From positions 26,936 to 90,935 of IMG/VR virus record IMGVR_UViG_3300035698_010466: a stretch of DNA of 64,000 nucleotides; one strand, given 5' to 3'. This DNA is from a virus. The notes under the pieces were generated by a model. That model did no database searches. It saw only the letters and a list, made by a program, of their open reading frames with translations, and was not told the origin of the DNA. A program made the position numbers and the translations under genes. Within the stretch, counting starts at the first letter, position 1; the number at the start of each line of letters is the position of its first letter. Positions 183 to 52,517 of the stretch are shown here, in pieces.

Positions 183-1079
183 ATGAAAAGAGCTGATAAA
201 AGGAAGTATCATTACATATATAAAACAACATGTACAATTACAAAAAAGTTTTATATTGGATTGCATTCCACTGATAATCTTGATGATGGTTATAAAGGAT
301 CAGGTCGACAGCTTTGGAACTCAATTAATCAGCATGGCAAAGAAAATCATATAACTGAAATTTTAGAATATTTACCTGATAGAAAAAGTCTATCTAATAG
401 AGAACGTGAAATTGTTAATAAAAATCTTTTACGAGATAATATGTGTATGAATTTAACTTTAGGCGGTGGAGACATAAATGCACCATATCATGTAACAATT
501 AAAGATAAAGATGGAAATACATTTAGAACACCAGTTAATGACCCAAGATATTTATCTGGAGAATTAGTTGTATTAGCAAACGGAAAAGTTACTGTTAAAG
601 ATAAAAATGGAAAAACTTTTAGAACTAGTCTTAGTGACCCAAGATATTTATCTGGAGAACTAGTTCCAGTTGCTAAAGGATTTGTTAATGTTAAAGATAA
701 AAATGGGAATGGATATAGGGTATTAATCAGTGACCCAAGATATTTATCTGGAGAATTAGTAGGTGTCACTAAAAATAAAGTAACAGTTAAAGATAAAGAT
801 GGAAATATATACAGTGTATCAGTTAATGATTCAAGATATTTATCTGGAGAATTAATTCCTATATGGGTTGGTAAAAGTCATTCTTTAAGAACTAAGAATA
901 AAATAAGTAAAACTAAAAAAGGTACACAAACAGGTTCAGCAAATTCTCAATTTGGCACATGTTGGATTTATAACATAAAATTAGATGAAACTATTAAAAT
1001 AAAAAAAACAAAATTATCTGATTATCTTAATAATGGTTGGATAAGAGGTAGAATAAAAAATAAAAAATATTATATATGA
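183..1079 (+). CDS. GIY-YIG (Seg-like) homing endonuclease with four ~32-aa internal repeats and NUMOD3-like motif
   Basis: HYIYKTT...FYIGLHST...YKGSG N-terminus; VKDKDGN...DPRYLSGELV repeated 4 times (96-nt period). Confidence 0.8.
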   Translation: MKRADKRKYHYIYKTTCTITKKFYIGLHSTDNLDDGYKGSGRQLWNSINQHGKENHITEILEYLPDRKSLSNREREIVNKNLLRDNMCMNLTLGGGDINAPYHVTIKDKDGNTFRTPVNDPRYLSGELVVLANGKVTVKDKNGKTFRTSLSDPRYLSGELVPVAKGFVNVKDKNGNGYRVLISDPRYLSGELVGVTKNKVTVKDKDGNIYSVSVNDSRYLSGELIPIWVGKSHSLRTKNKISKTKKGTQTGSANSQFGTCWIYNIKLDETIKIKKTKLSDYLNNGWIRGRIKNKKYYI

Positions 1080-1255
1080 AACATTTTAATAAATCAATAT
1101 CAGCTATAATAGCTGGTGAAAAATGTCCTTTACCAATTGGTATTATACCTGATCAAATGGGTATTAATTTATGTTCAGTTGAAAGCATATCATGGGATGA
1201 ACTTAATGACGGGCAAATAGATAAGCTGACAATTAATTTTATTCCACTAAAATAA
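1076..1255 (+). CDS. small hypothetical protein (59 aa, below ORF-track cutoff)
   Basis: ATGA overlap with upstream gene; open frame MKHFNKSISAIIAGEKCPLPIGIIPDQMG...FIPLK. Confidence 0.6.
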   Translation: MKHFNKSISAIIAGEKCPLPIGIIPDQMGINLCSVESISWDELNDGQIDKLTINFIPLK

Positions 1256-1280
1256 ATTTAAAAAATATTATATTTTATGT

Positions 1281-1311
1281 GAAACAAACACATCATCTGT
1301 ATATATAAATA
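1281..1311 (+). promoter_or_regulatory. putative middle-class promoter (AAAC-N16/17-RTATAA) of the leader peptide
   Basis: GAAAC-17 nt-ATATAA; same spacing at 10375, 13631, 28503, 36465, 41878, 57771; also contains TATAAATA. Confidence 0.55.
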
Positions 1312-1327
1312 ACAAATAATAATATTA

Positions 1328-1432
1328 ATGCAACGAAGTTTACAAACATATTGGACGAGTATACATACTGAGATTAAGGAATCACAGATGGTAGATCCGT
1401 TTGCACTTGGCTGTAATTTAGGGAGAACTTGA
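1328..1432 (+). CDS. putative attenuator leader peptide, 34 aa, containing all 20 amino acids
   Basis: MQRSLQTYWTSIHTEIKESQMVDPFALGCNLGRT*; 29 distinct codons in 34; lies between a promoter and a terminator upstream of the tRNA array. Confidence 0.8.
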   Translation: MQRSLQTYWTSIHTEIKESQMVDPFALGCNLGRT

Positions 1433-1453
1433 TAATTTTTAACACGAATATAC

Positions 1454-1490
1454 AAGGCCTCCTAGTTATTCTGGGAGGCTTTTTTAGTTT
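1454..1490 (+). terminator. intrinsic terminator (attenuator) with competing antiterminator
   Basis: Stem AAGGCCTCCTAG/CTGGGAGGCTTT, loop TTATT, U-tract; the 5' arm can instead pair with 1418-1431 (TTAGGGAGAACTTG). Confidence 0.8.
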
Positions 1491-1502
1491 AACTGCTTCG
1501 AA

Positions 1503-1910
1503 AAAAAAATGAGGGTTTAGAGAAAAAGTTTCATAAATATTTTTTATTCCCAATAAAATTGATTATATTTAATTATAATTAAAAACGGTAAAATTAAACA
1601 CTGTTATAAACGTTCTTTAAAAAAATGAGGGAAATAAGAAAAAAGTTTCATAAAAATTTTTTATTCCCAATTTAATTGATTATATTTAATTATAATTAAA
1701 AACGGTAAAATTAAACACCGTAACAAACGTTCTTTAAAAAAAATGAGGGAATTAAGAAAAAAGTTTCATAAAAATTTTTTATTCCCAATTTAATTGATTA
1801 TATTTATATTGTAATTAATTCAAACTATTACAAATGTGAAATTAAAGTTTCAAGAAAAAAGTTTCGAGAAAATTTCAAATCGCAAAAACTTTATTACATT
1901 CGTACTGAAA
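1503..1910 (+). repeat. three ~117-bp tandem repeats plus a degenerate fourth; each carries an early-promoter motif
   Basis: Units start ATGAGGG at 1509, 1625, 1743; the core TTTTATTCCCAAT...TTGATTATATTTAATTATAATT recurs at 8751, 47657, 50285, 51444. Confidence 0.85.
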
Positions 1911-1930
1911 TTGATTACTTTTATAATACC

Positions 1931-1941
1931 GCTCTTTGACA
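1931..1941 (+). promoter_or_regulatory. boxA-like antitermination element
   Basis: GCTCTTTGACA resembles rrn boxA; related CGTTCTTTAAAA at ~1611 and ~1728. Confidence 0.6.
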
Positions 1942-2160
1942 TATTGGATGATATCAAATAAACACCTCCTCGTGGTGATATTGGATACGATTGAAAATAA
2001 TTCGACTAATTATCTTATGACGATAAATCTAACTAAGTTTATTATTTCCGGAAGGAATGAGGCAATATAGAATTAGCCGTTTGTTAAGGCTAGGAGCATA
2101 CCATAACTCAAGCATTTAAGTCATTAACTGATGCAAATATTGTAACGGAACTGCAGTTCC

Positions 2161-2232: not shown

Positions 2233-2304
2233 TGATCCATGGTGTAATCGGTAACACATAACACTTTGAATGTTAAGTACCAGGTTCAAATCCTGGTGGA
2301 CCAA
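2233..2304 (+). tRNA. tRNA-Gln(TTG)
   Basis: Cloverleaf; anticodon arm TAACA-CTTTGAA-TGTTA. Confidence 0.9.
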
Positions 2305-2383
2305 CTGAGTATCTAGATTTTTGTTTGCAAGCCCTTATTGTTACAATCGGCCGATACTAATGATAAGGAATCGAAAATACTTT

Positions 2384-2454
2384 CGCGATATAGTATAGTG
2401 GTAGTACATTGGCGTTCGAAGCTGGTGGCTCAGGTTCGATTCCTGATATCGCAA
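2384..2454 (+). tRNA. atypical tRNA, Pro/fMet-like body, nominal anticodon TCG
   Basis: Good acceptor, D and T arms; anticodon stem mostly G-U pairs with loop GTTCGAA. Confidence 0.55.
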
Positions 2455-2471
2455 CTATTGTAACTAAACAT

Positions 2472-2545
2472 GGCCCTTTCGTCTAATAGGCTAGGACACA
2501 TCTCTTTCAAGGATGAAACGCACGGATCGTAACCGGCAGGGGTCA
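2472..2545 (+). tRNA. tRNA-Glu(TTC)
   Basis: CATCT-CTTTCAA-GGATG; T-loop variant ATCGTAA. Confidence 0.85.
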
Positions 2546-2610
2546 CTAAATTAATCTGATGCCGTATAAAATATCGGTAGTATCTGAGGCTAGGATTAAT
2601 TTTTAAACAT

Positions 2611-2683
2611 GGATTAGTAGCTCAAATGGTAGAGCGCCGGTGTGAAGTACCGGAGGTAGGTGGATCGTTACCACCCTATTCCA
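2611..2683 (+). tRNA. tRNA-Phe(GAA)
   Basis: CCGGT-GTGAAGT-ACCGG; T-loop ATCGTTA. Confidence 0.85.
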
Positions 2684-2909
2684 CTGCATTGATTACCGGC
2701 TACAATCATCGGTCCTTTACCCTAAATTGTTAGGGAAATAACCAAAATGGGCAAACCGGGAAGCTTTCGTAAACGTATCCAAACCCTCAGTAGGGGATAC
2801 CGAAAAGAAATAAATTGTATAAGAAGCGAAAAATGGTCAACTCGAGATAAGGCCAGAGTATTGTATGAAAAAATATCCGTAAGGAGAATAACGAAGGGGT
2901 TTTTATAAT

Positions 2910-2991
2910 GGGTACGGAAAGTCATTTCGGATATGACAATCGGTCTGTAACACCGATCCTTTGGGGCGTGGTTCGAGTCCACCCGGATCCA
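2910..2991 (+). tRNA. tRNA-Tyr(GTA)
   Basis: TCGGT-CTGTAAC-ACCGA; variable arm; TTCGAGT T-loop. Confidence 0.85.
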
Positions 2992-3179
2992 CTAAAATCA
3001 TGGAGTATCGAAGATAACGTAGAAGCGGTAGGATTAATTTGCAAGAAGGCCTACAACGTTTGCAAACTCAAATTGATTTTAACTTTTAAATGATTTTAAA
3101 AAATCTGTGCTAATAATAACATGTAAAAAATTAGAACAGTTTCCTCGGGCAAGGTCTATGGAAATATTTAAAAGTCAAT

Positions 3180-3253
3180 ACTCTCGAAGCTCAAGTGAAA
3201 GTAGCTACGCTCTTTTAAAGCGAAGGTTGCAGGTTTGATCCCTGCGGGGAGTA
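3180..3253 (+). tRNA. tRNA-Lys(TTT), divergent
   Basis: CGCT-CTTTTAA-AGCG; D-loop lacks GG; T-loop TTTGATC. Confidence 0.7.
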
Positions 3254-3260
3254 CAAAAAA

Positions 3261-3346
3261 TTGGAAGTGATGAAATTGGCAAACATACTTCCCCAAGAGG
3301 GAAGTGGAAATATATTTCCGTAGTGGTTCGAGTCCACTCTTCCAAT
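3261..3346 (+). tRNA. atypical class II Leu-like tRNA (nominal AAG, C33)
   Basis: TTGGAAG/CTTCCAA acceptor; long variable arm; loop CCAAGAG lacks U33. Confidence 0.6.
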
Positions 3347-3555
3347 CAAATAAAATTAGTAAAGAAATCTAAATCTTGGATGGATACATCAATGTAGATT
3401 GGCAAGGATATTAATTTTATCAATAAGTAGCCGAAAGGTGTAGATAAACTAATGCATGATACGAGTACAGGGAACCAGCCCAATGACTCTACTTATGAAC
3501 TTATCGCTAATAGGTTTCCACCTTGGGAAGCGTTAAATATTCCTAAACGGACCAC

Positions 3556-3625
3556 GTCTGCGTAGTGTAATGGCTAGCATATCTGACTGTCTATCAGAAG
3601 GAGGGGTTCGAATCCCACGTCGACG
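3556..3625 (+). tRNA. tRNA-Asp(GTC)
   Basis: TCTGA-CTGTCTA-TCAGA; G73. Confidence 0.8.
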
Positions 3626-3705
3626 GCTAAGTTAATAGTAAACGCACCTAACGATTCTGAAAAGAACCGCGGACAAAATTCTTAGGTCTATTAACATTTT
3701 TAAAT

Positions 3706-3780
3706 ACCTTTGTAGGCCTCTTGGTGAGGAACTAGGCTGTCAACCTAGTAAGACAAACGGATCGTAACCGTTCAGGGGTG
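3706..3780 (+). tRNA. tRNA-Asp(GTC), second copy
   Basis: CTAGG-CTGTCAA-CCTAG; G73; T-loop ATCGTAA. Confidence 0.85.
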
Positions 3781-3785
3781 CAAAT

Positions 3786-3870
3786 GTTTCTATAGTTTAA
3801 TATTCGGAGTTAACCCTCCAGAAAAACACGGACTAGTACGAGCTTTAGGTTTGAAATCCTAATAGAGACA
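3786..3870 (+). ncRNA. tRNA-like RNA with a hairpin inserted in the D-loop and a collapsed anticodon arm
   Basis: GTTTCTA/TAGAGAC acceptor; GGAG-TTAACC-CTCC insert; TTAGG/CCTAA T-stem. Confidence 0.5.
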
Positions 3871-3877
3871 CAAATAC

Positions 3878-4022
3878 CATTCTATAGTGTAAGACTAGGA
3901 ACAAGTATTTAAGATAAGTATTCGACAAAGATCTATCGAAAAAAGGCTTAAAGAAAATTCTGTACTAGAACACAACCCTCATGGGGAGGGTAGATACAGT
4001 ATCAAATCTGTTAGAATGACCA
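3878..4022 (+). ncRNA. tRNA-Pro(TGG)-like RNA with ~70-nt structured insertion in the D-loop
   Basis: CATTCTA/TAGAATG-A-CCA; D-stem GTGT...ACAC encloses a CTAG...CTAG domain; ACCCT-CATGGGG-AGGGT arm. Confidence 0.6.
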
Positions 4023-4023
4023 T

Positions 4024-4099
4024 CGGGTGGTAGAGGAGTCAGGTTTATCTCGGTATCTTTGGACGATACAGCACGCAGGTTCAAATCCTGCTCACCCGA
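4024..4099 (+). tRNA. tRNA-Pro(TGG)
   Basis: GTATC-TTTGGAC-GATAC; C1-G72, A73. Confidence 0.9.
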
Positions 4100-4206
4100 C
4101 GACGGAGTTTTAATATTTTATTTTCTTCAAGTAAAGAAATTTTAAGTAGTCCTAGACAAAAGAAATTTTAAATAAAATGATATGACTGATGGAGAGACAT
4201 CAATAT

Positions 4207-4282
4207 CTGGTGGTAGAGGAGTCAGGTTTATCTCGGTATCTTTGGACGATACAGCACGCAGGTTCGAATCCTGCCTATCAGA
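4207..4282 (+). tRNA. tRNA-Pro(TGG), near-identical duplicate
   Basis: Same body as 4024-4099 with compensatory acceptor-stem changes. Confidence 0.9.
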
Positions 4283-4283
4283 C

Positions 4284-4550
4284 AATTATATTAAGTTGAA
4301 AATCTAACATTGTATTATGTTATACTAAATACCTTGGTACAACATATTAAGAATTGGTATTTTATTACAATTTCAAAACCTATGAATACGTTAGATTGAT
4401 TGATGATACTATAAAAGATTCCCCAATATACCAATGGTTTCAACAGTTGCGGGGTGCGAGAAGTGTCGATACGGATTTATAACCTGTATAAATAACCTGA
4501 CAGTCAACTTGGACTATTATTGTTTCATAGAGGTATGGCTTAATATAATT
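4284..4550 (+). ncRNA. candidate ~265-nt structured RNA, family unknown
   Basis: 14-bp closing stem AATTATATTAAGTT/GGCTTAATATAATT; internal AATCTAAC/GTTAGATT helix; no ORF. Confidence 0.6.
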
Positions 4551-4647
4551 TTTTAAAATTATCACAGTGGGCTGTTAATTAAAATGTTTAAAAAATATAT
4601 AGATGAATTTAATCCTTTACCAGGTATTAAATACTCAATAAATTAAT

Positions 4648-4735
4648 TCTAAGGTTGCCGTAGTTGGTCGAACGGTCCAGACTGTTAATCTGGTGAGTGT
4701 AAACTCCATCGTAGGTTCGAATCCTCCCCTTAGAG
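4648..4735 (+). tRNA. tRNA-Asn(GTT) with long variable arm
   Basis: CCAGA-CTGTTAA-TCTGG; GAGT-GTAA-ACTC variable hairpin; G73. Confidence 0.85.
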
Positions 4736-4771
4736 CGCAAATAGAAATCTTTAAAGATTTCAAAAATATAT

Positions 4772-4847
4772 TGCGGGATGGTAGCAGATGGTTTAGCTCA
4801 CCGGGCTCATAACCCGGAGGTCGGGGGTTCAAGTCCCTCTCCCGCAA
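4772..4847 (+). tRNA. tRNA-fMet(CAT)
   Basis: CCGGG-CTCATAA-CCCGG (three G-C pairs); T1-A72. Confidence 0.9.
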
Positions 4848-4918
4848 CTTTAAACATTTCTGACACATTAATGAATTTATATGTTGTGCGTATTGTTAAA
4901 TCAGACAAGCTATAATGC

Positions 4919-5071
4919 TGTTTAGGGATAGTTTTATAGTATACATACTAATTTTCTGGTCTCCCTAAGATTAGAAAATGTTAACGTGGTTTTATAATAT
5001 ACTTGGAAAGTTAAAGAGCGGACATAGATCCGTAAACTTTAACGATATAGGGTTCGAGTCCCTTGTGGAAC
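4919..5071 (+). ncRNA. expanded tRNA-like RNA (T-arm retained, D and anticodon arms replaced by long hairpins)
   Basis: AGGG-TTCGAGT-CCCT near the 3' end; AGTATA/TATACT and GTTAAAG/CTTTAAC helices. Confidence 0.45.
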
Positions 5072-5083
5072 ACTATTTAATAC

Positions 5084-5157
5084 GGGTCTTTAGCTTAGTA
5101 GGTTAAAGCAGTTGACTCATAATCAAAAGATCGCAGGTTCGATTCCTGCAAGGCCCA
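5084..5157 (+). tRNA. tRNA-Ile2(CAT, lysidine type)
   Basis: GGGTCTT/AAGGCCC acceptor typical of Ile2; TTGA-CTCATAA-TCAA. Confidence 0.8.
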
Positions 5158-5160
5158 CTT

Positions 5161-5334
5161 AATTCTTACATAAGGTACATTAGCAGTACTGAAAGAACTC
5201 TTAACTCTCACAGGATCGCAACCTTTAATGAGAGCTTTAAATGGCTTAAGAGATAATGTTGGAGTCCCTGCTCTATCATGCATGGTAACAGGTTATAGGG
5301 AACAAACTATAGGTAAAAACTCGACAGAAGAATT
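5161..5334 (+). ncRNA. candidate ~175-nt structured RNA, family unknown
   Basis: AATTCTT/AAGAATT closing stem; CTCTTAA/TTAAGAG and CTCTCA/TGAGAG helices; fills a tRNA spacer exactly. Confidence 0.5.
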
Positions 5335-5338
5335 ATAT

Positions 5339-5423
5339 GGAAGGCATCCGGAAGGCATGAGGAGCTGCTCTTGAAAAGCAGTAATGGGTAAGACCATCGG
5401 GGGTTCGAATCCGCCGTCTTCCT
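5339..5423 (+). tRNA. tRNA-Ser(TGA)
   Basis: CTGCT-CTTGAAA-AGCAG; long variable arm. Confidence 0.9.
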
Positions 5424-5599
5424 CAAACATTTTTAAAGTTATAAGCTAGTAAGGTCTGGGCGAATGGACACCAGGTTACCCCAATAGACAGATTTTAAAA
5501 ATGGGAATATTATCTTACATTCAGCTCTAATATTCTAAGTACATCAGAGGTTCAATTGGGAACACTTAAATGTTGAATTCAAAACTCACTCTGATAAAC

Positions 5600-5673
5600 G
5601 CGAGTAACGCATAAATGGTGGTGCACCTGCCTTCCAAGCAGGAACAGAGTCGGTTCGATTCCGACTATTCGCT
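5600..5673 (+). tRNA. tRNA-Gly(TCC)
   Basis: CCTGC-CTTCCAA-GCAGG; U73. Confidence 0.9.
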
Positions 5674-5683
5674 CAAATTCATA

Positions 5684-5825
5684 AGGTTTCTTACAGCAAC
5701 TAACTACTTTAAATCTGCTGCCTTAAATGGCTTACGTGGTTCGAACCCCGTTGCTCCCACTATTAAATTATCACATGGGAGTATGATGGAACTGGAAAAC
5801 ATGGCGGATGTAAAATAGAAACCTG
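5684..5825 (+). ncRNA. ACAGCAA-scaffold RNA carrying a circularly permuted tRNA-Leu-like body (Y RNA/YrlA-like topology)
   Basis: AGGTTTC-TTACAGCAA...GAAACCT-G closure; tRNA 3' half (V-arm, TTCGAAC loop, TGCTCCCA) precedes the 5' half (GGGAGTA, D-arm, GCGGAT). Confidence 0.7.
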
Positions 5826-5837
5826 GAATTTATTTAA

Positions 5838-5897
5838 AGGATGCTTACAGCAAATTAAACCAAATCAAACTTGAAAATTGAAAAACCATGCATCCTG
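5838..5897 (+). ncRNA. ACAGCAA-scaffold RNA displaying a Ser(UGA) anticodon loop
   Basis: AGGATGC-TTACAGCAA...TCAA(A)-CTTGAAA-(A)TTGA...GCATCCT-G. Confidence 0.65.
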
Positions 5898-5915
5898 AAT
5901 TTTTACTTACTACAT

Positions 5916-5988
5916 GGGGAATTGGTGAAATTGGCTATCACAAGACTCTTGCAAAGTCTAGTTTCCGAATCGTACTCGGAATTCTCCA
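5916..5988 (+). tRNA. tRNA-Ala(TGC)
   Basis: AGACT-CTTGCAA-AGTCT; G3-U70. Confidence 0.85.
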
Positions 5989-6036
5989 CTATTATCGGTT
6001 CAATTTATTGTGACTCCATGAATATATAAAATAAAA

Positions 6037-6819
6037 ATGGATATAAAGTATATTTGTAAAGAATGCAATATTGAATTTAAAACATTTCAAGATAAAGCTA
6101 ATCATGTTAGATGGAAACATAAAGATAATTCAAATTATTTAATAAAGGCAAGTGAATCTGCTAAAAAAGCTTGGACTAAAAAATTAGGGAAATGGGTAGA
6201 TGAAACTACTGAATGTTACATATGTAAAACTATATTTGATATTAGATATAGAGAAGGAAAGAAAAAAAATAAATATTTTTGTTCAAGATCATGCGCAAAT
6301 AGTAGAATTATTACTAAAAAAACTAGAGATAAAATATCTAAATCGTTAATCGGTAAACCTTCTCCACGTATTCATTTGAACATTAAAAAAGTTTGTGGTC
6401 AATGTAATTGTGAATTTGAAGTACGTGCTACAAGAAGAAATCAAAAGTTTTGTTCTATAGAATGTTCGAATAAATTTAGAAAAAAAACTAGGTCAGAATT
6501 TGCAAATTATAAATCTGAATGTAGATTTAATTTTAATTTAGCTGATTACCCTGATGAATTTGATTTTACTTTAATAGAAAATTTTGGTTGGTATAAAGCT
6601 GCAAATAGAGGAAATAATTTAAACGGTATTAGCAGAGATCATATGATAAGTGTTAAATATGGATATGAACATAATATCGATTCAAAATTTATTAGTCATC
6701 CTGCAAATTGTAAATTAATGAGGCATAATGATAATGTAAGTAAATATACAAAATGTTCTATTTCTCTAACAGAATTATTAAATAAAATAGAATATTGGAA
6801 TAAAACATATAAAAAATAA
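6037..6819 (+). CDS. zinc-finger HNH-like putative homing endonuclease
   Basis: Multiple CxxC and FCSxxC motifs; C-terminal SRDHMIS...HPANCKLM..N. Confidence 0.7.
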   Translation: MDIKYICKECNIEFKTFQDKANHVRWKHKDNSNYLIKASESAKKAWTKKLGKWVDETTECYICKTIFDIRYREGKKKNKYFCSRSCANSRIITKKTRDKISKSLIGKPSPRIHLNIKKVCGQCNCEFEVRATRRNQKFCSIECSNKFRKKTRSEFANYKSECRFNFNLADYPDEFDFTLIENFGWYKAANRGNNLNGISRDHMISVKYGYEHNIDSKFISHPANCKLMRHNDNVSKYTKCSISLTELLNKIEYWNKTYKK

Positions 6820-6838
6820 TAAAAGATTATTTTTAATT

Positions 6839-6914
6839 GCGATAATAGCTCAGTTGGTAGAGCATTAGGTTGCCAATCTAAAGGTCGTGGGTTCGAATCC
6901 CATTTATCGCTCCA
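6839..6914 (+). tRNA. tRNA-Gly(GCC)
   Basis: TTAGG-TTGCCAA-TCTAA; encoded CCA. Confidence 0.95.
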
Positions 6915-6917
6915 AAC

Positions 6918-6991
6918 GCTTCCATAGTTTAGAAGGCAGAAAACCCCGGATTTGTAACCCGGAAAACTCAGTTCGATCCTGAGTGGGAGCT
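6918..6991 (+). tRNA. tRNA-Thr(TGT)
   Basis: CCGG(A)-TTTGTAA-(C)CCGG. Confidence 0.85.
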
Positions 6992-7014
6992 CTCAAATAA
7001 ATCAAAAATAGTAT

Positions 7015-7524
7015 ATGATAGGTACAATTACAATAATTCAATCTTTAATAATAGTATCATATATTACTTTTCTTTTAATAAAATTTAAAGGACCTTTATC
7101 GTCGATATCACAATCATGGTATGCATTAAAGCCTTATAATTTAAGTTACTTATTTTATATTTTTATGATATCATTAGGTTTATGTATGGATTTTAGACAT
7201 GATCCTTTTTATTATATGTCAGGAATGGGTTTATTTTTAGTCGCAGGAGCGGCTGCATTTAGATCAAAATATAAAGGAACAAATATTCTACATTATACAG
7301 GAGTGTTATTAGCTACTGTTTTTGCTTTTTGGGGGCAATATTATAAAGTAGGTATATTACCACAGAGTATTAGTATACTCTCACTGGTCGCTCTGATATT
7401 TATCTTTTTTAGAAAGGATTATTTATGGTGGATAGAAATAGCAATATTCATATCAATAATGATAGGATTTGCAATACAAGATATGCGGGGTGGACTGGAG
7501 ATGGTTACCAGCTCGGGCTCATAA
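7015..7524 (+). CDS. multi-pass membrane protein; 3' end overlaps tRNA-fMet
   Basis: About six hydrophobic segments. Confidence 0.75.
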   Translation: MIGTITIIQSLIIVSYITFLLIKFKGPLSSISQSWYALKPYNLSYLFYIFMISLGLCMDFRHDPFYYMSGMGLFLVAGAAAFRSKYKGTNILHYTGVLLATVFAFWGQYYKVGILPQSISILSLVALIFIFFRKDYLWWIEIAIFISIMIGFAIQDMRGGLEMVTSSGS

Positions 7525-7562
7525 CCCGAACGACGAAGGTTCGATTCCTTCCCCCGCACCCA
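7484..7562 (+). tRNA. tRNA-fMet(CAT)-like, second copy
   Basis: TCGGG-CTCATAA-CCCGA; T1-A72; C73 then CCA. Confidence 0.85.
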
Positions 7563-7603
7563 TAACGCGGTTAGAGTTTCGCGTTTAAACAAAAACTCAA
7601 AAT

Positions 7604-7676
7604 TGACAGATAGCCCAAATGGTAGAGGGTCCGGCTGTTAACCGGAAAGATATAGGTTCGAACCCTATTCTGTCAG
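7604..7676 (+). tRNA. tRNA-Asn(GTT)
   Basis: TCCGG-CTGTTAA-CCGGA; G73. Confidence 0.85.
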
Positions 7677-7683
7677 CAAATAT

Positions 7684-7758
7684 GCTCGTGTGGTCAAAAT
7701 GGTAAAGGCGCTGGTTTTAGACACCAGAGATTTGAGGGTTCGACTCCCTCCATGAGTA
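7684..7758 (+). tRNA. tRNA-Leu(TAG) with short variable loop
   Basis: CTGGT-TTTAGAC-ACCAG; A73; no long V-arm. Confidence 0.85.
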
Positions 7759-7847
7759 CAAAGAAAGTAAGGTTAAAGATGATAGTCTGTAATAAAGCCG
7801 ACGACTATACGAGATGCATCTCGTTTCCGGTTATCTTTCTTTCTTTA

Positions 7848-7917
7848 GATGATATAACTCAATGGGTAGAGTAGGGCTTAGCGGCCTTAGTTACAGGTTC
7901 GAATCCTGTTATCATCG
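7848..7917 (+). tRNA. tRNA-like RNA with truncated anticodon loop (identity undetermined)
   Basis: Perfect acceptor, D and T arms; anticodon arm GGGCT-TAGC-GGCCT. Confidence 0.6.
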
Positions 7918-7937
7918 CAACAATAATATTCTGCATA

Positions 7938-8000
7938 AGGATGCCTACAGCAAACTAAACTAAACCAAACTTTTAATTTGAAAACACTGTGTATCCTGTA
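7938..8000 (+). ncRNA. ACAGCAA-scaffold RNA displaying a Lys(UUU) anticodon loop
   Basis: AGGATGC-CTACAGCAA...CAAA-CTTTTAA-TTTG...GTATCCT-GTA. Confidence 0.65.
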
Positions 8001-8003
8001 TAT

Positions 8004-8083
8004 GATCCTGTGGTGAAAATGGTAGACACGTTAGGTTTAAGCCCTAATGCTTATGCGTGCCGGTTCGAATCCGGCCAGGATTA
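8004..8083 (+). tRNA. tRNA-Leu(TAA)
   Basis: TTAGG-TTTAAGC-CCTAA; variable arm; A73. Confidence 0.9.
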
Positions 8084-8129
8084 CACGGTGGTTTTTCGAG
8101 GGTTCCACTTCAAATAAACCTGAGACCAT

Positions 8130-8204
8130 GCTCCTTTAGCTTAGTAGGTTTAAAGCGTGATTCTTACAAAATTGAGACCGGTGGTTCGAATCCACCAGGG
8201 AGTA
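8130..8204 (+). tRNA. tRNA-Val(TAC)
   Basis: TGATT-CTTACAA-AATTG. Confidence 0.9.
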
Positions 8205-8210
8205 CAATAT

Positions 8211-8283
8211 ACACGTATAGTTCAATCGGATAGAACATATGACTACGAATCATAAGATGAGGGTTCGATTCCTTCTATGTGTA
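8211..8283 (+). tRNA. tRNA-Arg(ACG)
   Basis: TATGA-CTACGAA-TCATA. Confidence 0.9.
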
Positions 8284-8297
8284 CAATAATTACAAAT

Positions 8298-8381
8298 GCC
8301 CCTGTATCTCATCGGTCTTCTAAACCGAGTCGTTAAATGAGTAATTGGAGTGACGTGTGGGTTCGATTCCCTCCAGGGGTT
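8298..8381 (+). tRNA. tRNA-Arg(TCT) lacking a D-arm, with an enlarged variable region
   Basis: GCCCCTG/CAGGGGT; only TATCTCA before TCGGT-CTTCTAA-ACCGA; 26-nt variable stem-loop. Confidence 0.7.
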
Positions 8382-8472
8382 CTAAAATTCAGTTTTCTGA
8401 CACCTAGGGTTAGTGAATAATTTAAAGCAGAACATAAGTGGTACACAAGTCCACGACTGAATTTTTTGACAT

Positions 8473-8543
8473 ACGTCTGTATCTTAATGGTAAAGTACTG
8501 GTCTCCAAAACCAGCAATGGGGGTTCGACTCCTCCCAGGCGTG
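8473..8543 (+). tRNA. tRNA-Trp(CCA)
   Basis: CTGGT-CTCCAAA-ACCAG; G73. Confidence 0.9.
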
Positions 8544-8553
8544 CACATAACAT

Positions 8554-8628
8554 CGATACGTGGCCAAGTAGGTGAAGGCACCTGGCTGATAACCAGGAGA
8601 TGCGCAGGTTCAATTCCTGCCGTATCGA
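8554..8628 (+). tRNA. tRNA-Ile(GAT)
   Basis: CCTGG-CTGATAA-CCAGG. Confidence 0.9.
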
Positions 8629-8633
8629 CATAA

Positions 8634-8718
8634 GGAAGGCTGACAGAAAGGTATTGTATTAGTTTGCTAAACTAAAGTCTGTGTCAAACCAGTGGGGGTT
8701 CGAATCCGCCGCCTTCCT
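8634..8718 (+). tRNA. tRNA-Ser(GCT)
   Basis: TTAGT-TTGCTAA-ACTAA; long variable arm. Confidence 0.9.
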
Positions 8719-8750
8719 CAAAAAATATTTTAAAAATAATCACCCAAAAA

Positions 8751-8797
8751 TTTTTATTTCCCAATAAAATTGATTATATTTAATTATAATTAAAAAC
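8751..8797 (+). promoter_or_regulatory. early-promoter repeat motif
   Basis: Near-identical to the core of the 1503-1910 repeats. Confidence 0.7.
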
Positions 8798-8804
8798 GGA
8801 AATA

Positions 8805-8972
8805 ATGAAAGTAACAATAATGAAAATGAAACACACCTTATTAGTTGAAGACAAAAAAGGTAAAGAGTCTCAAATTCCATTATGGGCTTTGATTGATGAA
8901 TGTGGTCATACTATGATACAAGTTTATAGTAAAGAAGAACCAATAGAATTACAAAAAGAATTAGAAAAATAG
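8805..8972 (+). CDS. small hypothetical protein (55 aa)
   Basis: Open frame directly after the promoter motif. Confidence 0.5.
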   Translation: MKVTIMKMKHTLLVEDKKGKESQIPLWALIDECGHTMIQVYSKEEPIELQKELEK

Positions 8973-9081
8973 AAAATTATTGATTAAGTGTACTAAGGTT
9001 CTGATACCAAGCTGTAAACGCGCAAGGAGGATATACCGACATCGCTGGTATGAGAAAACATGCTAATCAATATATAAAAAT

Positions 9082-9208
9082 TAATCCCGTAAAAGCAATT
9101 AAGAATGTATGCATACAATCGGTATTTTTAAGTTGCAACTTGAAGGCACCCCGTCATTGATGGTACTAATGTTCGACTCATTGGCAATGAATTAATTGTG
9201 AGGGATTA
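9082..9208 (+). ncRNA. stem-closed RNA containing an internal T-arm/acceptor-like minihelix
   Basis: TAATCCC/GGGATTA and CAATTAA/TTAATTG stems; TAATG-TTCGACT-CATTG. Confidence 0.5.
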
Positions 9209-9211
9209 TAT

Positions 9212-9285
9212 GGCGAGGTAGCTTAGTTGGTCAGAGCGTCGGAATCATAACCCGAAGGTCACCGGTTCGAAACCGGTCCTCGCTA
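9212..9285 (+). tRNA. tRNA-Met(CAT), elongator
   Basis: GGCGAGG/CCTCGCT acceptor; loop ATCATAA. Confidence 0.9.
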
Positions 9286-9287
9286 CA

Positions 9288-9487
9288 TTAAAAGAATGTC
9301 CATCGCTCGTAAGAGAGGAAGTTCAGGACATCGCAGTTTAAGGCAGGAGATTCAACGCTTATCGGAATCGTTCGTACTGCCGAGGATGCAACTTCAAAAC
9401 AGCTTAGAGGATGAACTGCTCATAAAGCAAGGTAGAAGGCAAAGATAAATGATGGACCACGACAGGATCCTGGCTATATTCTTTTAA
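9288..9487 (+). ncRNA. rnpB: minimal RNase P RNA (~200 nt)
   Basis: P4 signatures GAGGAAGTTCAGG and ACAGGATCCTGGCTATA; P1 TAAAAGAAT/ATTCTTTTA; P2 GTCCATC/GATGGAC. Confidence 0.85.
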
Positions 9488-9608
9488 AAATTAAATTGAG
9501 TGGTAGTAGGACGGAATATTGTAGGTTGCTGGACACAAACCGCAATAAAGGTAAAGCTCTAAATTGTAAAATCCAGTAAGGGCGAATAAAGTAACTCAAT
9601 TTTTATAT

Positions 9609-9683
9609 GGTGTTTGAAGCATTAAGGTGATGCGTCTGACTGTGACTCAGAAGAACTTGGATCAATACCAAGCTAATACCCCA
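9609..9683 (+). tRNA. tRNA-His(GTG)
   Basis: G-1, C73, CCA; TCTGA-CTGTGAC-TCAGA. Confidence 0.9.
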
Positions 9684-9717
9684 ATTTAATAAGTATAAAT
9701 ATTTTAAATTAATTAAC

Positions 9718-10227
9718 ATGAGCAAGTATACAAAAACATTAGTCGTTGATAATAGTTATATTCCACGAAGTATAATTCGTACAGAAAGAGCCTTTGTTAT
9801 TTCATATAAAGGAAATGCTGATGTTATTGCAGAACATCCAGAATCATTTAAGTTAGTTAATCCTAATTTAGATATTTTAAAGCCATCAATAATTAAAGTA
9901 CACAGATTTATTAATTCTCCATTTTATAAAGTTCCTTTAACAAGAGTGAATGTTTTTAGACGTGATAATTTTGAATGTGTATATTGTGGAAAGGGTGATC
10001 ATAAAAAAGAATTAACTCTTGACCACGTAATTCCTAAATCAAAGGGTGGTCCAGATTCTTGGGATAATTTAGTAACTGCATGCAAATCATGTAATATCGA
10101 AAAATCTGATTTAACTTTAGAAGAATGGGGTAAGGAAATTCCTAAACCACATAGACCACATTATTTAATGTTAATAAAAAAATTAGATTATGTTCCAGAA
10201 GAATGGAAAAAATACTTATTATTCTAA
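9718..10227 (+). CDS. HNH endonuclease
   Basis: RDNFECVYCG...LTLDHVIPKSKGG...WDNLVTACKSCN. Confidence 0.92.
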   Translation: MSKYTKTLVVDNSYIPRSIIRTERAFVISYKGNADVIAEHPESFKLVNPNLDILKPSIIKVHRFINSPFYKVPLTRVNVFRRDNFECVYCGKGDHKKELTLDHVIPKSKGGPDSWDNLVTACKSCNIEKSDLTLEEWGKEIPKPHRPHYLMLIKKLDYVPEEWKKYLLF

Positions 10228-10229
10228 AC

Positions 10230-10254
10230 AAAGCCTGATTAATTTCAGGTTTTT
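10230..10254 (+). terminator. intrinsic terminator
   Basis: AAAGCCTGA/TCAGGTTT stem followed by Ts. Confidence 0.6.
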
Positions 10255-10256
10255 AT

Positions 10257-10337
10257 GAAGGTGTACCTAAGCGGCCAAAGGGGATGGATTGCAAATTCAT
10301 TGCGAAAGCTTCGTCAGTTCGAATCTGACTACCTTCT
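10257..10337 (+). tRNA. tRNA-Cys(GCA) with extended variable arm
   Basis: ATGGA-TTGCAAA-TTCAT; U73; GC-GAAA-GC variable hairpin. Confidence 0.85.
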
Positions 10338-10428
10338 CTCTTTCAGAAATCATATACTTAGTTTATATTTTAATTAAACTAATGTTAATATATGCTATAT
10401 AAAAATATAGATAATTTAAAAATCCAAT

Positions 10429-46481: not shown

Positions 46482-47063
46482 ATGAAAGTTTTATTTTTAG
46501 ATAACGATGGCGTTATATGTTTAGACAAAAATTGGGGAAGCAGATTCCAAAAACAAAAAGTTTTTTATAAAGGCAAAGATAGACCTCCAATGAATAAGGT
46601 TGATATCTCAGTTAGATTTGATGAATTTGATGAAAGAGCTATTAAAGTTCTTAATGAAATATTAAAAGAAACCGATGCAGAAATAGTAGTTAGTTCTGAT
46701 TGGAGAAGACATGCAACCTTAGATGAGTTAGGCGATTTTTATGAAGCCCAAGGTATGATTAAAAGACCTATAGGAATTACAGAATTTTTTCATTATACTA
46801 ATTGGATTAATGAAGGATTTATCTCTACTACCTTTCCATTTAGCCGCTATGATCAATTGGAACAAAAGAGATATTTTGAAATACTAAGATGGTTAAAGAA
46901 TAATCCAGACGTAACAAATTGGGTTGCAATTGATGATTTGAATATGGGACTTAGTGAAAATCCTGCATCAACTAGTTGGGGCTTAACAAATTTTGTTTTG
47001 ACTAACCCACTTGATGGAATAGGTTTAACAAAAAAAGAAGAAATATTAAAATTTTTAAAATGA
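46482..47063 (+). CDS. HAD-family (HAD_SAK_2-like) phosphatase
   Basis: FLDNDGV, VVSSDWR, WVAIDD. Confidence 0.8.
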   Translation: MKVLFLDNDGVICLDKNWGSRFQKQKVFYKGKDRPPMNKVDISVRFDEFDERAIKVLNEILKETDAEIVVSSDWRRHATLDELGDFYEAQGMIKRPIGITEFFHYTNWINEGFISTTFPFSRYDQLEQKRYFEILRWLKNNPDVTNWVAIDDLNMGLSENPASTSWGLTNFVLTNPLDGIGLTKKEEILKFLK

Positions 47064-47632
47064 AACTATTAAACAATATATGGCTGTGGCTTAAATGGGA
47101 TGCTAAATATCTTCATAGAGATATTTATGTAGGTATTAAAAATTTAATTTATTGGTTTCCTGTTATTTGGATGGATAGAAATTGGGATGAGAGTTATATT
47201 TTTGAAGTACTTGAACATAAAATAGCAGCACAGTCAAAATATATTAATGATCGTCGATATCATATGCGATCAGAAAGAGATGCTGAAATTATGATGACTT
47301 GTGTTAAATTATCAGCAAAAGTTAGAGAAGAATTTTATGCGATAGAATACTCTGAGTATCATGAAACTGATTTTTATTTTGTTCCATGTAAAGATATACC
47401 AGATCATTCTGAATTAAAGACTGATACGAAAAGTGAACATTTTGATGATTACTTTAAAAAATATCCATTAATTTATAAACGTGTTATAAATGGAGAAGGT
47501 ATATTTAATCTTAATGGAAGAGAAAATGACAAAGAAGTCATTGCATTAAACATGGCTCATATTAATCATAATAGAGCAAGGAAGATACTTTTTACAATGT
47601 TAGAAAGAAATATCGAACGTTGGTGGGATTAA
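47060..47632 (+). CDS. hypothetical phage protein
   Basis: ORF with W.DR.WD and terminal WWD. Confidence 0.75.
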   Translation: MKLLNNIWLWLKWDAKYLHRDIYVGIKNLIYWFPVIWMDRNWDESYIFEVLEHKIAAQSKYINDRRYHMRSERDAEIMMTCVKLSAKVREEFYAIEYSEYHETDFYFVPCKDIPDHSELKTDTKSEHFDDYFKKYPLIYKRVINGEGIFNLNGRENDKEVIALNMAHINHNRARKILFTMLERNIERWWD

Positions 47633-47656
47633 TGATTAAAAACTTTCAGTTCTTAC

Positions 47657-47687
47657 TAAAATTGATTATATTTATACTGTAATTAAA
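47657..47687 (+). promoter_or_regulatory. early-promoter motif (partial)
   Basis: TAAAATTGATTATATTTATACTGTAATT. Confidence 0.55.
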
Positions 47688-47695
47688 TACTTTTT

Positions 47696-47935
47696 ATGAA
47701 AAATGATTTTAAATTTATAAATAAAGATTCTTATAATAATTTTTATGAAGGTGTTAAAAAATATTCTACTAAATATATCTTAACTGATGCTAAAATTCTT
47801 GCTTTAATTGATCATACAAATCCAGAAGGTGATCGCTTATATGAAATGGCTGAAGCTTTTTTACATTTATTTAAAAATAGAGAAGAATTTGAAGTATGCC
47901 AAAAAATAATATCTAACTGGCCTAAACTAAAATAA
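47696..47935 (+). CDS. hypothetical protein
   Basis: ORF after a promoter motif. Confidence 0.65.
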   Translation: MKNDFKFINKDSYNNFYEGVKKYSTKYILTDAKILALIDHTNPEGDRLYEMAEAFLHLFKNREEFEVCQKIISNWPKLK

Positions 47936-47958
47936 CATTTACTTAAATTAATAAATAT

Positions 47959-48294
47959 ATGAATAAATTTACATTTACATCCGGTGACAAAAGAAGATTA
48001 ACTGCAATCGCAAATGAATTCGGATTAATCGAAGCAACAACAAAAGGTCAAAAAAAGAATGGAACAATTTCTTATGTTGATCCTATCACAGTATCAGTTT
48101 ATACATTATATGAGAGTGGTTATATCAGACGTGCTAATCATGGGGCAAGAGCTTCCGGTATATTTTATCAATTAAACCCGAAACATGAAAATGGTGATCA
48201 TGTTACAAGAGTAATGTTAAACCCATTGGAACAAATTGGACAACTTGTATCAAGTATAATTGCATGTAGAAAAACTAAATCAGTAAAACCATAA
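47959..48294 (+). CDS. hypothetical protein
   Basis: ORF. Confidence 0.7.
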   Translation: MNKFTFTSGDKRRLTAIANEFGLIEATTKGQKKNGTISYVDPITVSVYTLYESGYIRRANHGARASGIFYQLNPKHENGDHVTRVMLNPLEQIGQLVSSIIACRKTKSVKP

Positions 48295-48467
48295 GTTATG
48301 AAAATTAAATCTCATAAACATAAAGATAAACGTACTATCCGAAAATTTTTATGGCTACCAAAATACCACAGAGATGGTTATATACTATGGTTAGAATATG
48401 TTGAATTAAATCAAGTGTATCTTAATGGTAAAGATGGTCGAGGTTGGTATACATATACTGAATAATT

Positions 48468-48767
48468 ATGACAAAACAATATAAATATCAAATTAAAGAT
48501 TTGCGCCCACCTGCGTTTGCTACATTAGGTGGACAAAAATATCTTTTTCCTGGATGGATTCCAGTAGATGATAATATTACTTTTGATGATGTTGAACATA
48601 TAAATCCTTTACAACATCTTAAAAAAGAAAATTTCGAAGTGACCGGTTCTACGGGTAATAAATATATTGTAACTAAACATGGTGATACATTTAACTGTGA
48701 CTGTCCTGCTGGTAAATTTAGAGGAACATGTAAACACATTAAAAGTATTAAGGAAAAACACTTTTAG
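48468..48767 (+). CDS. SWIM zinc-finger protein
   Basis: Y.V...CDCP....RGTCKHI. Confidence 0.85.
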   Translation: MTKQYKYQIKDLRPPAFATLGGQKYLFPGWIPVDDNITFDDVEHINPLQHLKKENFEVTGSTGNKYIVTKHGDTFNCDCPAGKFRGTCKHIKSIKEKHF

Positions 48768-48770
48768 ATT

Positions 48771-49319
48771 TTGTTAGATGAAAAGACATTAGTAAACTTC
48801 TGTAACAATAAACGAATCCTCGTTGTTGGAAATGCACAAACATTAATTAGAAAAGATAATAGTAAATTTATAGATTCTTTTGATGTTGTTATTCGTATTA
48901 ATCATGCAGTACCTTCGAACTTAATAGGTAAAAAAACTGATATTTGGATTTGTAATTACAATACTGTAGATCGACAATATCCAGAATATAAAAGATTTTT
49001 ACCTAAGTTTGTTATGAAGATGAATGAAAACACTTATATTGATCCTAAACTAAAATCCAATTTATATGTATGGCCTGTTGGTGAATTTAAAAAATTTAGA
49101 TCATTATTAAGTCTGAATAAACCTAGTACTGGCTTGAGTATACTATTTTGGTTAACAACTAAAGTTAATGCGAATATTAGCATAATTGGATTCGATTCGT
49201 TTAAAACTAAAACTTTTTATTATCATAAAGATATTCATCAGAAATATCATAATGGAAACAAAGAAAGGGACTGGATAAATAAATTAATTAATAGCAAACA
49301 AATAATAAAATACCAATGA
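48771..49319 (+). CDS. GT29 (sialyltransferase-like) protein
   Basis: VVGNA...IDSFDVVIRIN...GKKT; PSTG; GFD. Confidence 0.75.
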   Translation: MLDEKTLVNFCNNKRILVVGNAQTLIRKDNSKFIDSFDVVIRINHAVPSNLIGKKTDIWICNYNTVDRQYPEYKRFLPKFVMKMNENTYIDPKLKSNLYVWPVGEFKKFRSLLSLNKPSTGLSILFWLTTKVNANISIIGFDSFKTKTFYYHKDIHQKYHNGNKERDWINKLINSKQIIKYQ

Positions 49320-49690
49320 AAACTTATAATGAATATTTAAATGAAGGGGTACTCCAAAACATAAAGGATTCTGATTTTAATGGAGGAGATCCTGAAAGTA
49401 TTCAGGTTCATAATCAAGGTGTTGGTGGAGTTCAAAGTTTACAAGGAATGAGAAAACGAATAGTTCAACTTTTAGAGCAAATGTTGAAATCTGCAAAATC
49501 AGCAGAAAAAAATCATTCATTAGCTCATTATAATATTCAACAGGTTTTAAATTTAGCAAATCCTAAAAGTACAGGCGGAGTACTTTTAAAATATTTAGAG
49601 AACCATCAAAAAGCTGTCGAAGAACTTGAACAATTACGAAAGAAAGGTGGTAAAGGTGCTGGAAAAACCGTGCCAAAAAATTTAACTTAA
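49316..49690 (+). CDS. probable internal head protein
   Basis: N-terminus MKTYNEYLNE resembles the T4 capsid-targeting sequence. Confidence 0.7.
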   Translation: MKTYNEYLNEGVLQNIKDSDFNGGDPESIQVHNQGVGGVQSLQGMRKRIVQLLEQMLKSAKSAEKNHSLAHYNIQQVLNLANPKSTGGVLLKYLENHQKAVEELEQLRKKGGKGAGKTVPKNLT

Positions 49691-49693
49691 ACA

Positions 49694-50215
49694 ATGGGAA
49701 TATCAAATTTTGAAGATTTTATAAATGAAGCTCGTTCTATTACAAAAATCGATAAAGACATAATGCAAACTGTCGATTGAATGGCAGAACTTGTGACAAA
49801 CTGGAAAGCTGCTAAACAATCCGGTGATAAAACAGCAGAAGCTAATTTCGTTAAAAAACTTAAAATTCTAACAGATAAGAAAATAGCTCTTAATAAAGAA
49901 TTAGATATATCAATAGGATTAAAAGATGTGCATGTAGAATTTGTCGGTGAAGACTTTATCAATGAAGATTGGGGTTCATCTGATCAACATTCAATGAATA
50001 TGTATATTCATGATTTATTAAAGAAACCTAAAACTATGCCATCACCAATTGATGATAATTTAAAAAGTGCAGCAGAAGATGCTGTTGATTATTATTGGGA
50101 AGATTGGCCAGAATACAAAAAAGAGAGGAATACTTTAATTTTAAATGCAATTAGACTATATTTACAAAAAATGTTTACAAAGGAATTTAATAGATTTGCA
50201 GACTTTTTTAAATAA
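49694..50215 (+). CDS. probable internal head protein (in-frame TGA at 49778)
   Basis: MGISNFEDFINEA... in frame with ORF 49781-50215. Confidence 0.6.
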
Positions 50216-50241
50216 GATTAACTGATACATTACAATATCAT

Positions 50242-50263
50242 GGGGCTAATAAGCCCCTTTTTT
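50242..50263 (+). terminator. intrinsic terminator
   Basis: GGGGCT/AGCCCC stem plus T7. Confidence 0.8.
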
Positions 50264-50284
50264 ATGAAAAAAGTTAGTGTTTTA

Positions 50285-50332
50285 TTTTTTATTCCCAATA
50301 AAATTGATTATATTTAATTATAAATTAAAAAC
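50285..50332 (+). promoter_or_regulatory. early-promoter repeat motif
   Basis: Matches the core of the 1503-1910 repeats. Confidence 0.7.
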
Positions 50333-50339
50333 AGAAACT

Positions 50340-50894: not shown

Positions 50895-50899
50895 ATAAA

Positions 50900-51136: not shown

Positions 51137-51142
51137 AATAAA

Positions 51143-51421: not shown

Positions 51422-51443
51422 ATTAAAAATAATTAGCGAAATA

Positions 51444-51490
51444 TTTTTTATTCCCAATAAAATTGATTATATTTAATTATAATTAAAAAA
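51444..51490 (+). promoter_or_regulatory. early-promoter repeat motif
   Basis: Matches the core of the 1503-1910 repeats. Confidence 0.7.
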
Positions 51491-51501
51491 GGAGATACAA
51501 A

Positions 51502-52486: not shown

Positions 52487-52517
52487 AATGTTATAAAATA
52501 ATAAATTAAATACATTA

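Follow-up and report, generated by a model that had tools for sequence, protein, structure and literature searches.

Ahead of a viral tRNA array lies a short open reading frame (ORF) that fits all 20 amino acids into 34 codons, and this frame, together with the terminator behind it, is in our judgement probably a ribosome-mediated (leader-peptide) transcription attenuator controlling whether transcripts extend into the tRNA genes, a reading founded on computation throughout. Such an attenuator had been proposed from a sequence-only reading of the same DNA, and the proposal gains support from the codon coverage of homologous leaders, from leaders matched to separate tRNA blocks in relatives, and from the co-variation of ORF end and terminator across families. 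With less assurance, we also lean towards a general rule for large phages, under which tRNA genes are placed under supply-and-demand control by attenuators tailored to the tRNAs downstream; complete arrays would then carry a universal 20-amino-acid test message, such that loss of nearly any tRNA, including loss to anticodon nucleases, switches on the set. If true, this form of regulation would be widespread and as yet undescribed in print, and would give tRNA genes their first known attenuator. Here, 'the window' means the whole stretch of 64,000 nucleotides that was analysed, which belongs to a 91-kb contig; coordinates refer to the window unless another locus is named.

The window opens with the 3' end of a tmRNA gene (1-135), after which comes an ORF resembling GIY-YIG homing endonucleases (183-1079, plus strand; weak Pfam matches to SegE_GIY-YIG and NUMOD3). 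This ORF, which contains four internal repeats of about 33 residues each and separates the tmRNA gene from the tRNA array, is probably a recent insertion, since relatives such as L066 and L011 do without it; a comparable case, T4 segB within the T4 tRNA region, is cited in PMC8421152. It is followed by a 59-residue ORF with no Pfam family (1076-1255, plus strand); relatives of its product occur in 41 viral contigs, many being 200-320 kb in size, and in L011 the gene lies directly 3' of a tmRNA gene. Beyond the leader ORF and its terminator stand three to four tandem repeats of 117 bp (1502-1853, plus strand), carrying a promoter-type motif that is single in relatives; by comparison of sequences the motif is amplified ahead of the window's array, and the repeats are probably promoters. 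The same motif occurs, for example, twice per locus in L046-L057. A boxA-like element beginning CGCTCTTTGACA (1930-1949, plus strand), which we take to resemble the E. coli rrn boxA consensus, has an equivalent after the leader terminator in every relative and, by analogy, may serve Nus-type antitermination.

The presumed regulated target is the array itself (2233-10338, plus strand), with about 33 tRNA genes of 26 anticodon classes; the first tRNA lies 800 nt downstream of the leader ORF and on the same strand. The 26 anticodons were obtained by pooling ARAGORN, relaxed ARAGORN and Rfam matches, and those for Lys-UUU and Arg-UCU were read by eye from matches found by Rfam alone. Among the tRNA genes there are also an RNase P RNA-like match (9288-9487, plus strand; Rfam archaeal RNase P, 48 bits against a gathering score of 84), an Rfam freshwater-1 RNA match (5257-5318, plus strand; 59 bits, gathering score 72) and an HNH endonuclease ORF (9718-10227, plus strand; PF01844, E = 6e-17), the second mobile nuclease of the region.

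The leader ORF runs from ATG to TGA at 1328-1432 on the plus strand, and a recount agrees with the earlier one in giving 34 sense codons, 29 of them distinct, and all 20 amino acids. A cognate codon had been claimed for each of the 26 anticodon classes of the array; strict wobble rules give 25, the sole exception being Leu-UAG, for which CUA and CUG are missing and CUU alone is there, and four-way reading by U34 brings the coverage to 26 of 26. The coupon-collector expectations put forward with that claim (about 72 draws for 20 types and about 100 for 26) are arithmetically correct, and the supposed excess of G/C-ending codons is suggestive only (7/31 against 12.5% expected, P = 0.08). Within the 91-kb contig, all 20 amino acids occur in 29 of 36,769 stop-free windows of 34 codons (0.08%), and the leader is the only one among 187 ORFs of 30-38 codons to contain them all. 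The genome-sampled comparison that had been suggested gives P = 7e-4 for this composition among random 34-codon windows from the phage's long ORFs, and random ORFs sharing the leader's base composition give P = 1.4e-3. Taken alone, then, an ORF of this length with all 20 amino acids is rare and, having been found by a post-hoc search, is not decisive. Coverage of anticodon classes is a sharper statistic: neither 200,000 coding windows nor 28,668 random ORFs of matched composition include a single case with at least 25 classes, and in a ranking of the 492 small ORFs of the contig the leader comes top, with the next best at 23.

A Pfam search with the leader peptide gave no match. The leader is also without a Shine-Dalgarno motif and has an A-rich start context like that of the phage's other genes; this is counted as normal because the motif precedes only 2.5% of 80 long ORFs of the phage, against a random rate of 9%, and its absence was accordingly dropped as a case against translation of the leader. 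An antisense ORF of 65 codons (1258-1455), which has no Pfam match, was also rejected, as it carries stops in L065 and L058 and is not conserved.

Relatives were gathered by way of topoisomerase II, whose gene lies downstream of the array, yielding 80 loci with 58-79% identity. The leader is present in all nine loci that have 22 tRNAs and in none of the 71 that have 0-7, although loci with both array and leader may represent few lineages, so that this association would be partly phylogenetic. Each of the nine 22-tRNA arrays adjoins a tmRNA gene and has the leader at its head, and the nine loci share the string GTGAAACAA-N13-ATATATAA, the first seven bases of the ORF, the motif ACATATTGGA and the CCUCC core of the terminator. 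Many of the 71 loci, in which ORF and terminator are both missing, carry the window's promoter-repeat motif (1752-1818), and in L077, with seven tRNAs, no leader was found between the tmRNA gene and the first tRNA.

The homologous leaders (L066/L063, L058, L132 and L065) are 31 codons long and fall into four variants, whose peptides are 32-42% identical to that of the window. It had been proposed that homologues be inspected for broad coverage kept in spite of divergence, and this is what they display: every variant has 20 amino acids and codons for 19 of 20 downstream classes, which none of 200,000 random windows attains. Between L065 and L066 nine residues differ, and the sole Lys and sole Phe have each been lost at one position and regained at another; L066 and L063 differ by just three third-position A/G changes, all synonymous and within one decoding class. 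The reading frame is intact in all homologues and antisense frames are interrupted in L065 and L058. Because the inventory is kept where the peptide has diverged and the antisense frames are broken, the alignments indicate that selection is keeping the frame and the inventory of codon classes and not the peptide sequence.

Searches beyond these loci added little to the family. None of the 41 loci encoding the 59-residue protein, mostly without nearby tRNAs, has a leader homologue, and blastn searches of GenBank phages with positions 1-2300 and with the L066 element returned tRNA matches and one endonuclease match only. A pattern scan of metagenomes gave four real loci among the matches listed, all of them known variants, most of the listed matches being due to chance; as a rough control, chance ORFs with the scan motif have 12-19 amino acids. 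Scans of viral contigs with two strings from the ORF tail produced nothing new, and the contigs of four salt-lake DNA runs yielded only identical fragments and promoter-motif repeats, the leader being invariant there; no RNA run was listed as containing the locus.

Scanning for the promoter motif led to a second phage group, which has the same promoter and boxA-like strings and whose tRNAs are divided into three blocks; every block has a promoter, ORF and terminator of its own in front of it, with no promoter repeat between leader switch and tRNAs. Here the codons of the leaders follow the contents of the blocks. Leader 1 (L292:6596-6703, 35 codons), ahead of 15 tRNAs, devotes 27 of 34 codons to tRNAs of its own block (P = 1e-4) and provides a codon for each of the 15 classes of that block, as none of 200,000 random windows does; it has no Leu codon, the Leu tRNAs being in other blocks, and its Ile codons are AUC and AUU, ahead of tRNA-Ile-GAU. 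The block behind leader 2 (L292:975-1034 and longer variants) encodes Ser-UGA, Arg-UCU, Pro-UGG, Ile-UAU, Met and Leu-UAA, and the core of that leader is restricted to Ile-AUA, Leu-UUA, Arg-AGA, Pro and Ser codons; ATA, TTA, AGA, CCN and TCN thus stand ahead of Ile-UAU, Leu-UAA, Arg-UCU, Pro and Ser tRNAs. In total 11 of its 18 codons are cognate (P = 5e-5), all six classes are covered, and its variable positions swap solely among block-cognate codons. Leader 3 (L292:5460-5549) covers four of four classes (Glu, Asp, Met and Leu-UAG), with an enrichment that is not significant (7/28, P = 0.24). Leader 2 also exists with an earlier stop, at 19 codons instead of 24 (L290:3892-3951, L292:975-1034 and L302:2214-2273), and in this short form the antiterminator strand lies just past the stop, still within reach of a terminating ribosome.

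Further units of this kind occur in other phages, at L001:836-949 and, on the minus strand, at L258 13767-13919, where the 50-codon ORF again includes all 20 amino acids. The cultured Caulobacter phage phiCbK has cognate-rich small ORFs before two of its three main tRNA blocks: those of blocks 2 and 3 (L307, that is JX100813, record 46800-53000: 2741-2878 and 4542-4640), each with a hairpin and T run, are rich in Ser/Ala/Leu/Pro/Lys and in Gln/Phe/Val/Ile and stand ahead of blocks encoding those tRNAs. At phiCbK block 1 (L307:664-942), the Glu/Asp/Gly/Trp-rich end of a 92-codon ORF occupies the equivalent position. Set beside these sub-array leaders, the pan-leader of the window looks like the form that the device takes where the array is a single complete unit.

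The sequence-only reading had placed a strong terminator about 20 nt past the stop codon, which folding bears out: an intrinsic terminator occupies 1454-1488 on the plus strand (arms 1454-1465 and 1471-1482, loop 1466-1470, T tract), its G+C-rich stem at 1454-1482 having 12 bp and -18.7 kcal/mol, followed by a T run and beginning 21 nt after the stop. The A/T-rich spacer between them (1433-1453, plus strand) is of typical length: in almost every unit of each family, 20-27 nt separate stop and hairpin, a distance at which a ribosome on the stop codon should not obstruct the hairpin. The ORF closes with five codons (1417-1431, plus strand) that are a degenerate copy of the terminator's 3' arm and would form the antiterminator strand; as had been claimed, the 5' arm can pair with them, its best partner being 1420-1431 at -10.3 kcal/mol. 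This antiterminator is the weakest among the families (-10.3 vs -18.7 kcal/mol for the terminator). Of 18 units, 16 have the segment that pairs best with the 5' arm at the end of the ORF or over its stop codon. The terminators differ from family to family, and across eight families tails pair with their own arm at a mean of -11.9 kcal/mol and with the arms of other families at -5.8 (permutation P = 2e-5), the own arm ranking first for six of the eight and second for the other two. Across the five homologues no cell of the terminator is unpaired, and two of its pairs are compensatory; the antiterminator of the window's family, over five sequences, is paired in 97.5% of cells, with one compensatory pair, C-G in relatives of the L066 type and U-A in the window. 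Within that family the antiterminator score is reached by 94 of 500 shuffles, five sequences being too few for significance.

The nascent RNA was then folded up to the terminator loop with the ribosome footprint masked. In the window, the 5' arm is sequestered when the A site is at codons 2-28 and freed at codons 31-35; with no ribosome, eight of the 12 bases of the arm pair with the ORF end. The same pattern emerged for the L066 type and for leaders 1 and 2, whereas the masked folds of L001, L258 and L302 yielded no clean release of the arm. It had been cautioned from the outset that stalls at late codons would mask the antiterminator, and indeed only codons 2-28 lie where a stall leaves it free. 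Within this stretch 18 amino acids and 21 classes are represented; codons 29-30 are the sole positions for Cys and Asn, and 32-33 the sole positions for the Gly-UCC and Arg-UCU classes. The claim that the leader senses loss of any tRNA would therefore hold for the 21 classes within codons 2-28 and not for the five of 26 outside this stall-sensitive zone, four with cognates only in the masked tail (29-33), plus Leu-UAG. Similarly, read-through on stalling is predicted for codons 2-28, but not on stalling alone, as the folds predict that the untranslated state reads through as well.

On the computed features (the ORF with its codon coverage and conservation, the terminator, the competing pairing with its co-variation, and the codon matching in relatives) we base the following model, which presumes that the ORF is translated, that its promoter is active and that ribosome and polymerase are coupled, and in which the direction and size of the effect are predictions. 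Transcripts from the promoter-like element, or from the genes upstream, would carry the 34-codon ORF. Because the end of the ORF copies the 3' arm of the terminator, a ribosome at the stop would free the terminator and a late or absent one would leave the antiterminator in place. Thus a fast ribosome on the last codons or the stop would cover 1417-1431, the terminator would form, and transcription would end at about 1488; where the ribosome is delayed in codons 2-28, or is absent, 1417-1431 would be first to pair with the 5' arm (1454-1465), and with this arm held no terminator would form, so that RNA polymerase could pass the boxA-like element into the tRNA genes. Since the ORF has a codon for nearly every tRNA of the array, shortage of almost any of them would increase transcription of the whole set, amounting to supply-and-demand feedback on the tRNA pool. 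A link to host anticodon nucleases is speculation. The array is probably transcribed apart from the switch too, because promoter-type repeats stand between terminator and array; the earlier suggestion of promoters downstream of the terminator, with the attenuator as an additional input, agrees with the position of the repeats (1502-1853), whose activity is presumed from the recurring motif. If these promoters are active, the attenuator would be one of several inputs to the array, adding to its transcription and not solely controlling it.

By the folds, the element would report on translation as a whole, initiation included, and not on tRNA loss alone, which brings us to the best of the other explanations: a general sensor of translation status, for which the all-20 composition is simply a representative test message and which would report failure of initiation or elongation, as in host shut-off, attack by ribosome-targeting toxins, or starvation. 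The predicted fold without a ribosome, in which the terminator arm is sequestered so that any failure of translation leads to read-through, fits this explanation, as does the Anabaena trn operon, the only published stress-induced tRNA array that was found, which answers general stress (PMC8421152, PMC10272220). Yet it leaves unexplained the block-restricted codons of the sub-array leaders and their avoidance of common residues whose tRNAs are elsewhere, and it overlaps the attenuator reading more than it excludes it; we regard it as an outside possibility.

It is less likely still that the ORF is an independent gene for a small protein of 31-50 residues with its own promoter and terminator and a function unrelated to transcription of the array. 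The frame is conserved, close copies differ synonymously, and promoter, ORF and terminator do form a complete transcription unit; however, the amino-acid inventory persists although peptide identity is just 32-42%, composition tracks the tRNA sets in three or more families, and the end of the ORF always mimics its own terminator arm; Pfam has no match to it. Our starting view was plainer, namely a chance ORF in the 3' UTR of the upstream operon of endonuclease and 59-residue ORF, accompanied by that operon's ordinary terminator. The scan was post hoc in a window with hundreds of small ORFs, and in 41 other phages the 59-residue gene is directly followed by other genes, with the leader absent, as such a view would allow. 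It was dropped when the leader proved to be conserved in the topoisomerase II relatives: ORF, promoter-like element and terminator persist beside tRNA arrays in relatives that have no endonuclease, the antisense frames are not conserved, and the extreme coverage statistics and the match between tail and arm also contradict it, so that we now consider it very improbable.

Two further nucleotide signals accompany the attenuator proposed here. The promoter-like element GTGAAACAA-N13-ATATATAA (1279-1308, plus strand), a putative start site of the leader transcript, lies 20 nt before the leader ATG and has no second copy in the 91-kb contig; it recurs with equal spacing ahead of the leaders in L066, L063, L058 and L065 and also stands before leaders 1 and 2 of the second phage group. 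A T4-type late promoter, TATAAATA at 1304-1311, was considered and rejected, since it is lost in L063 and L058 and what is conserved is GTGAAACAA-N13-ATATATAA. Inside the leader, the motif ACATATTGGA (1346-1355, plus strand) is repeated at 1939-1948 beside the boxA-like element and is also found at L066:6958-6967. Other leader families have a similar string at the same distance from the ATG and in a different reading frame, and because the frame differs at constant ATG distance we read the motif as probably a signal at the level of nucleic acid, which may be a pause or factor-binding signal. The conservation of ACATATTGGA in differing frames is also what might suggest an RNA-only switch, T-box-like or a riboregulator bound by protein, in which the open frame is incidental, but this is scarcely credible given the preserved frame, all 20 amino acids and the block-specific codons, and no Rfam family is found at 1279-1490 with E up to 1.

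The roles proposed for phage tRNA genes include the matching of codon usage and the replacement of tRNAs degraded or cleaved by host defences. If the array came on only under slow decoding, this would mean that phages keep watch on the tRNA pool and answer to it; the switch would bring tRNA genes themselves within the range of classical attenuation, as targets of a new type, and would provide a compact natural sensor of decoding speed over nearly all anticodon classes, with the block-specific leaders of relatives as built-in controls. Full-text literature searches for control of tRNA genes or phage tRNA arrays by leader peptides or attenuation found nothing, and the element is best placed by comparison with systems that share a part of its design.

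With the trpL, hisL, pheL and leuL leaders of E. coli and Salmonella it shares a short ORF of cognate codons, an intrinsic terminator and a ribosome-dependent antiterminator. The energies in the window are similar in size to those of the trp attenuator, which are about -12 kcal/mol for the antiterminator and about -20 kcal/mol for the terminator. It differs from the attenuators of amino-acid operons in that the target is tRNA genes and not biosynthetic enzymes, in having no run of a single codon, each class being represented once or twice, and in the position of the antiterminator strand, which is on the last codons of the ORF itself. The protector helix is a feature of the trp type and is not common to all attenuators; folds of the window leader contained no protector or pause 1:2 helix that would give termination when the RNA is untranslated and, because no such separate helix was found, read-through is predicted for the untranslated state, contrary to trp superattenuation. 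Leaders that respond to several amino acids are familiar from thrL (Thr and Ile) and from ilvL of ilvGMEDA (Ile, Val and Leu), but these sense two or three amino acids, whereas the window leader represents 20, and 25-26 classes, with isoacceptors separated by the choice of codon.

In pheM of pheST and in T-box riboswitches, as in the proposed attenuator, how strongly a decoding component is expressed depends on whether the matching tRNA is available. Unlike the window leader, pheM reads a single amino acid and controls a synthetase, and the T-box binds uncharged tRNA directly through a conserved specifier loop and T-box sequence; the Rfam scan of 1279-1490, with E up to 1, contained neither a T-box nor another cis-regulatory family. 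The bmrB leader of bmrCD (PMC4191407) and the erm leaders likewise employ slowing of the ribosome in a short ORF to switch a terminator, although these are drug-responsive, serve resistance genes and are not matched to a tRNA set. Closest in its target is the Anabaena trn operon, which comprises 26 tRNA genes, is silent until translational stress and is repressed by TrcR (PMC8421152, PMC10272220). There too, impaired translation turns on an entire set of accessory tRNA genes; the switch in Anabaena is a protein repressor, and the words leader, attenuation and terminator appear in neither of the two papers on it (PMC8421152, PMC10272220), whereas in the window the corresponding decision would be made by a ribosome on the leader ORF.
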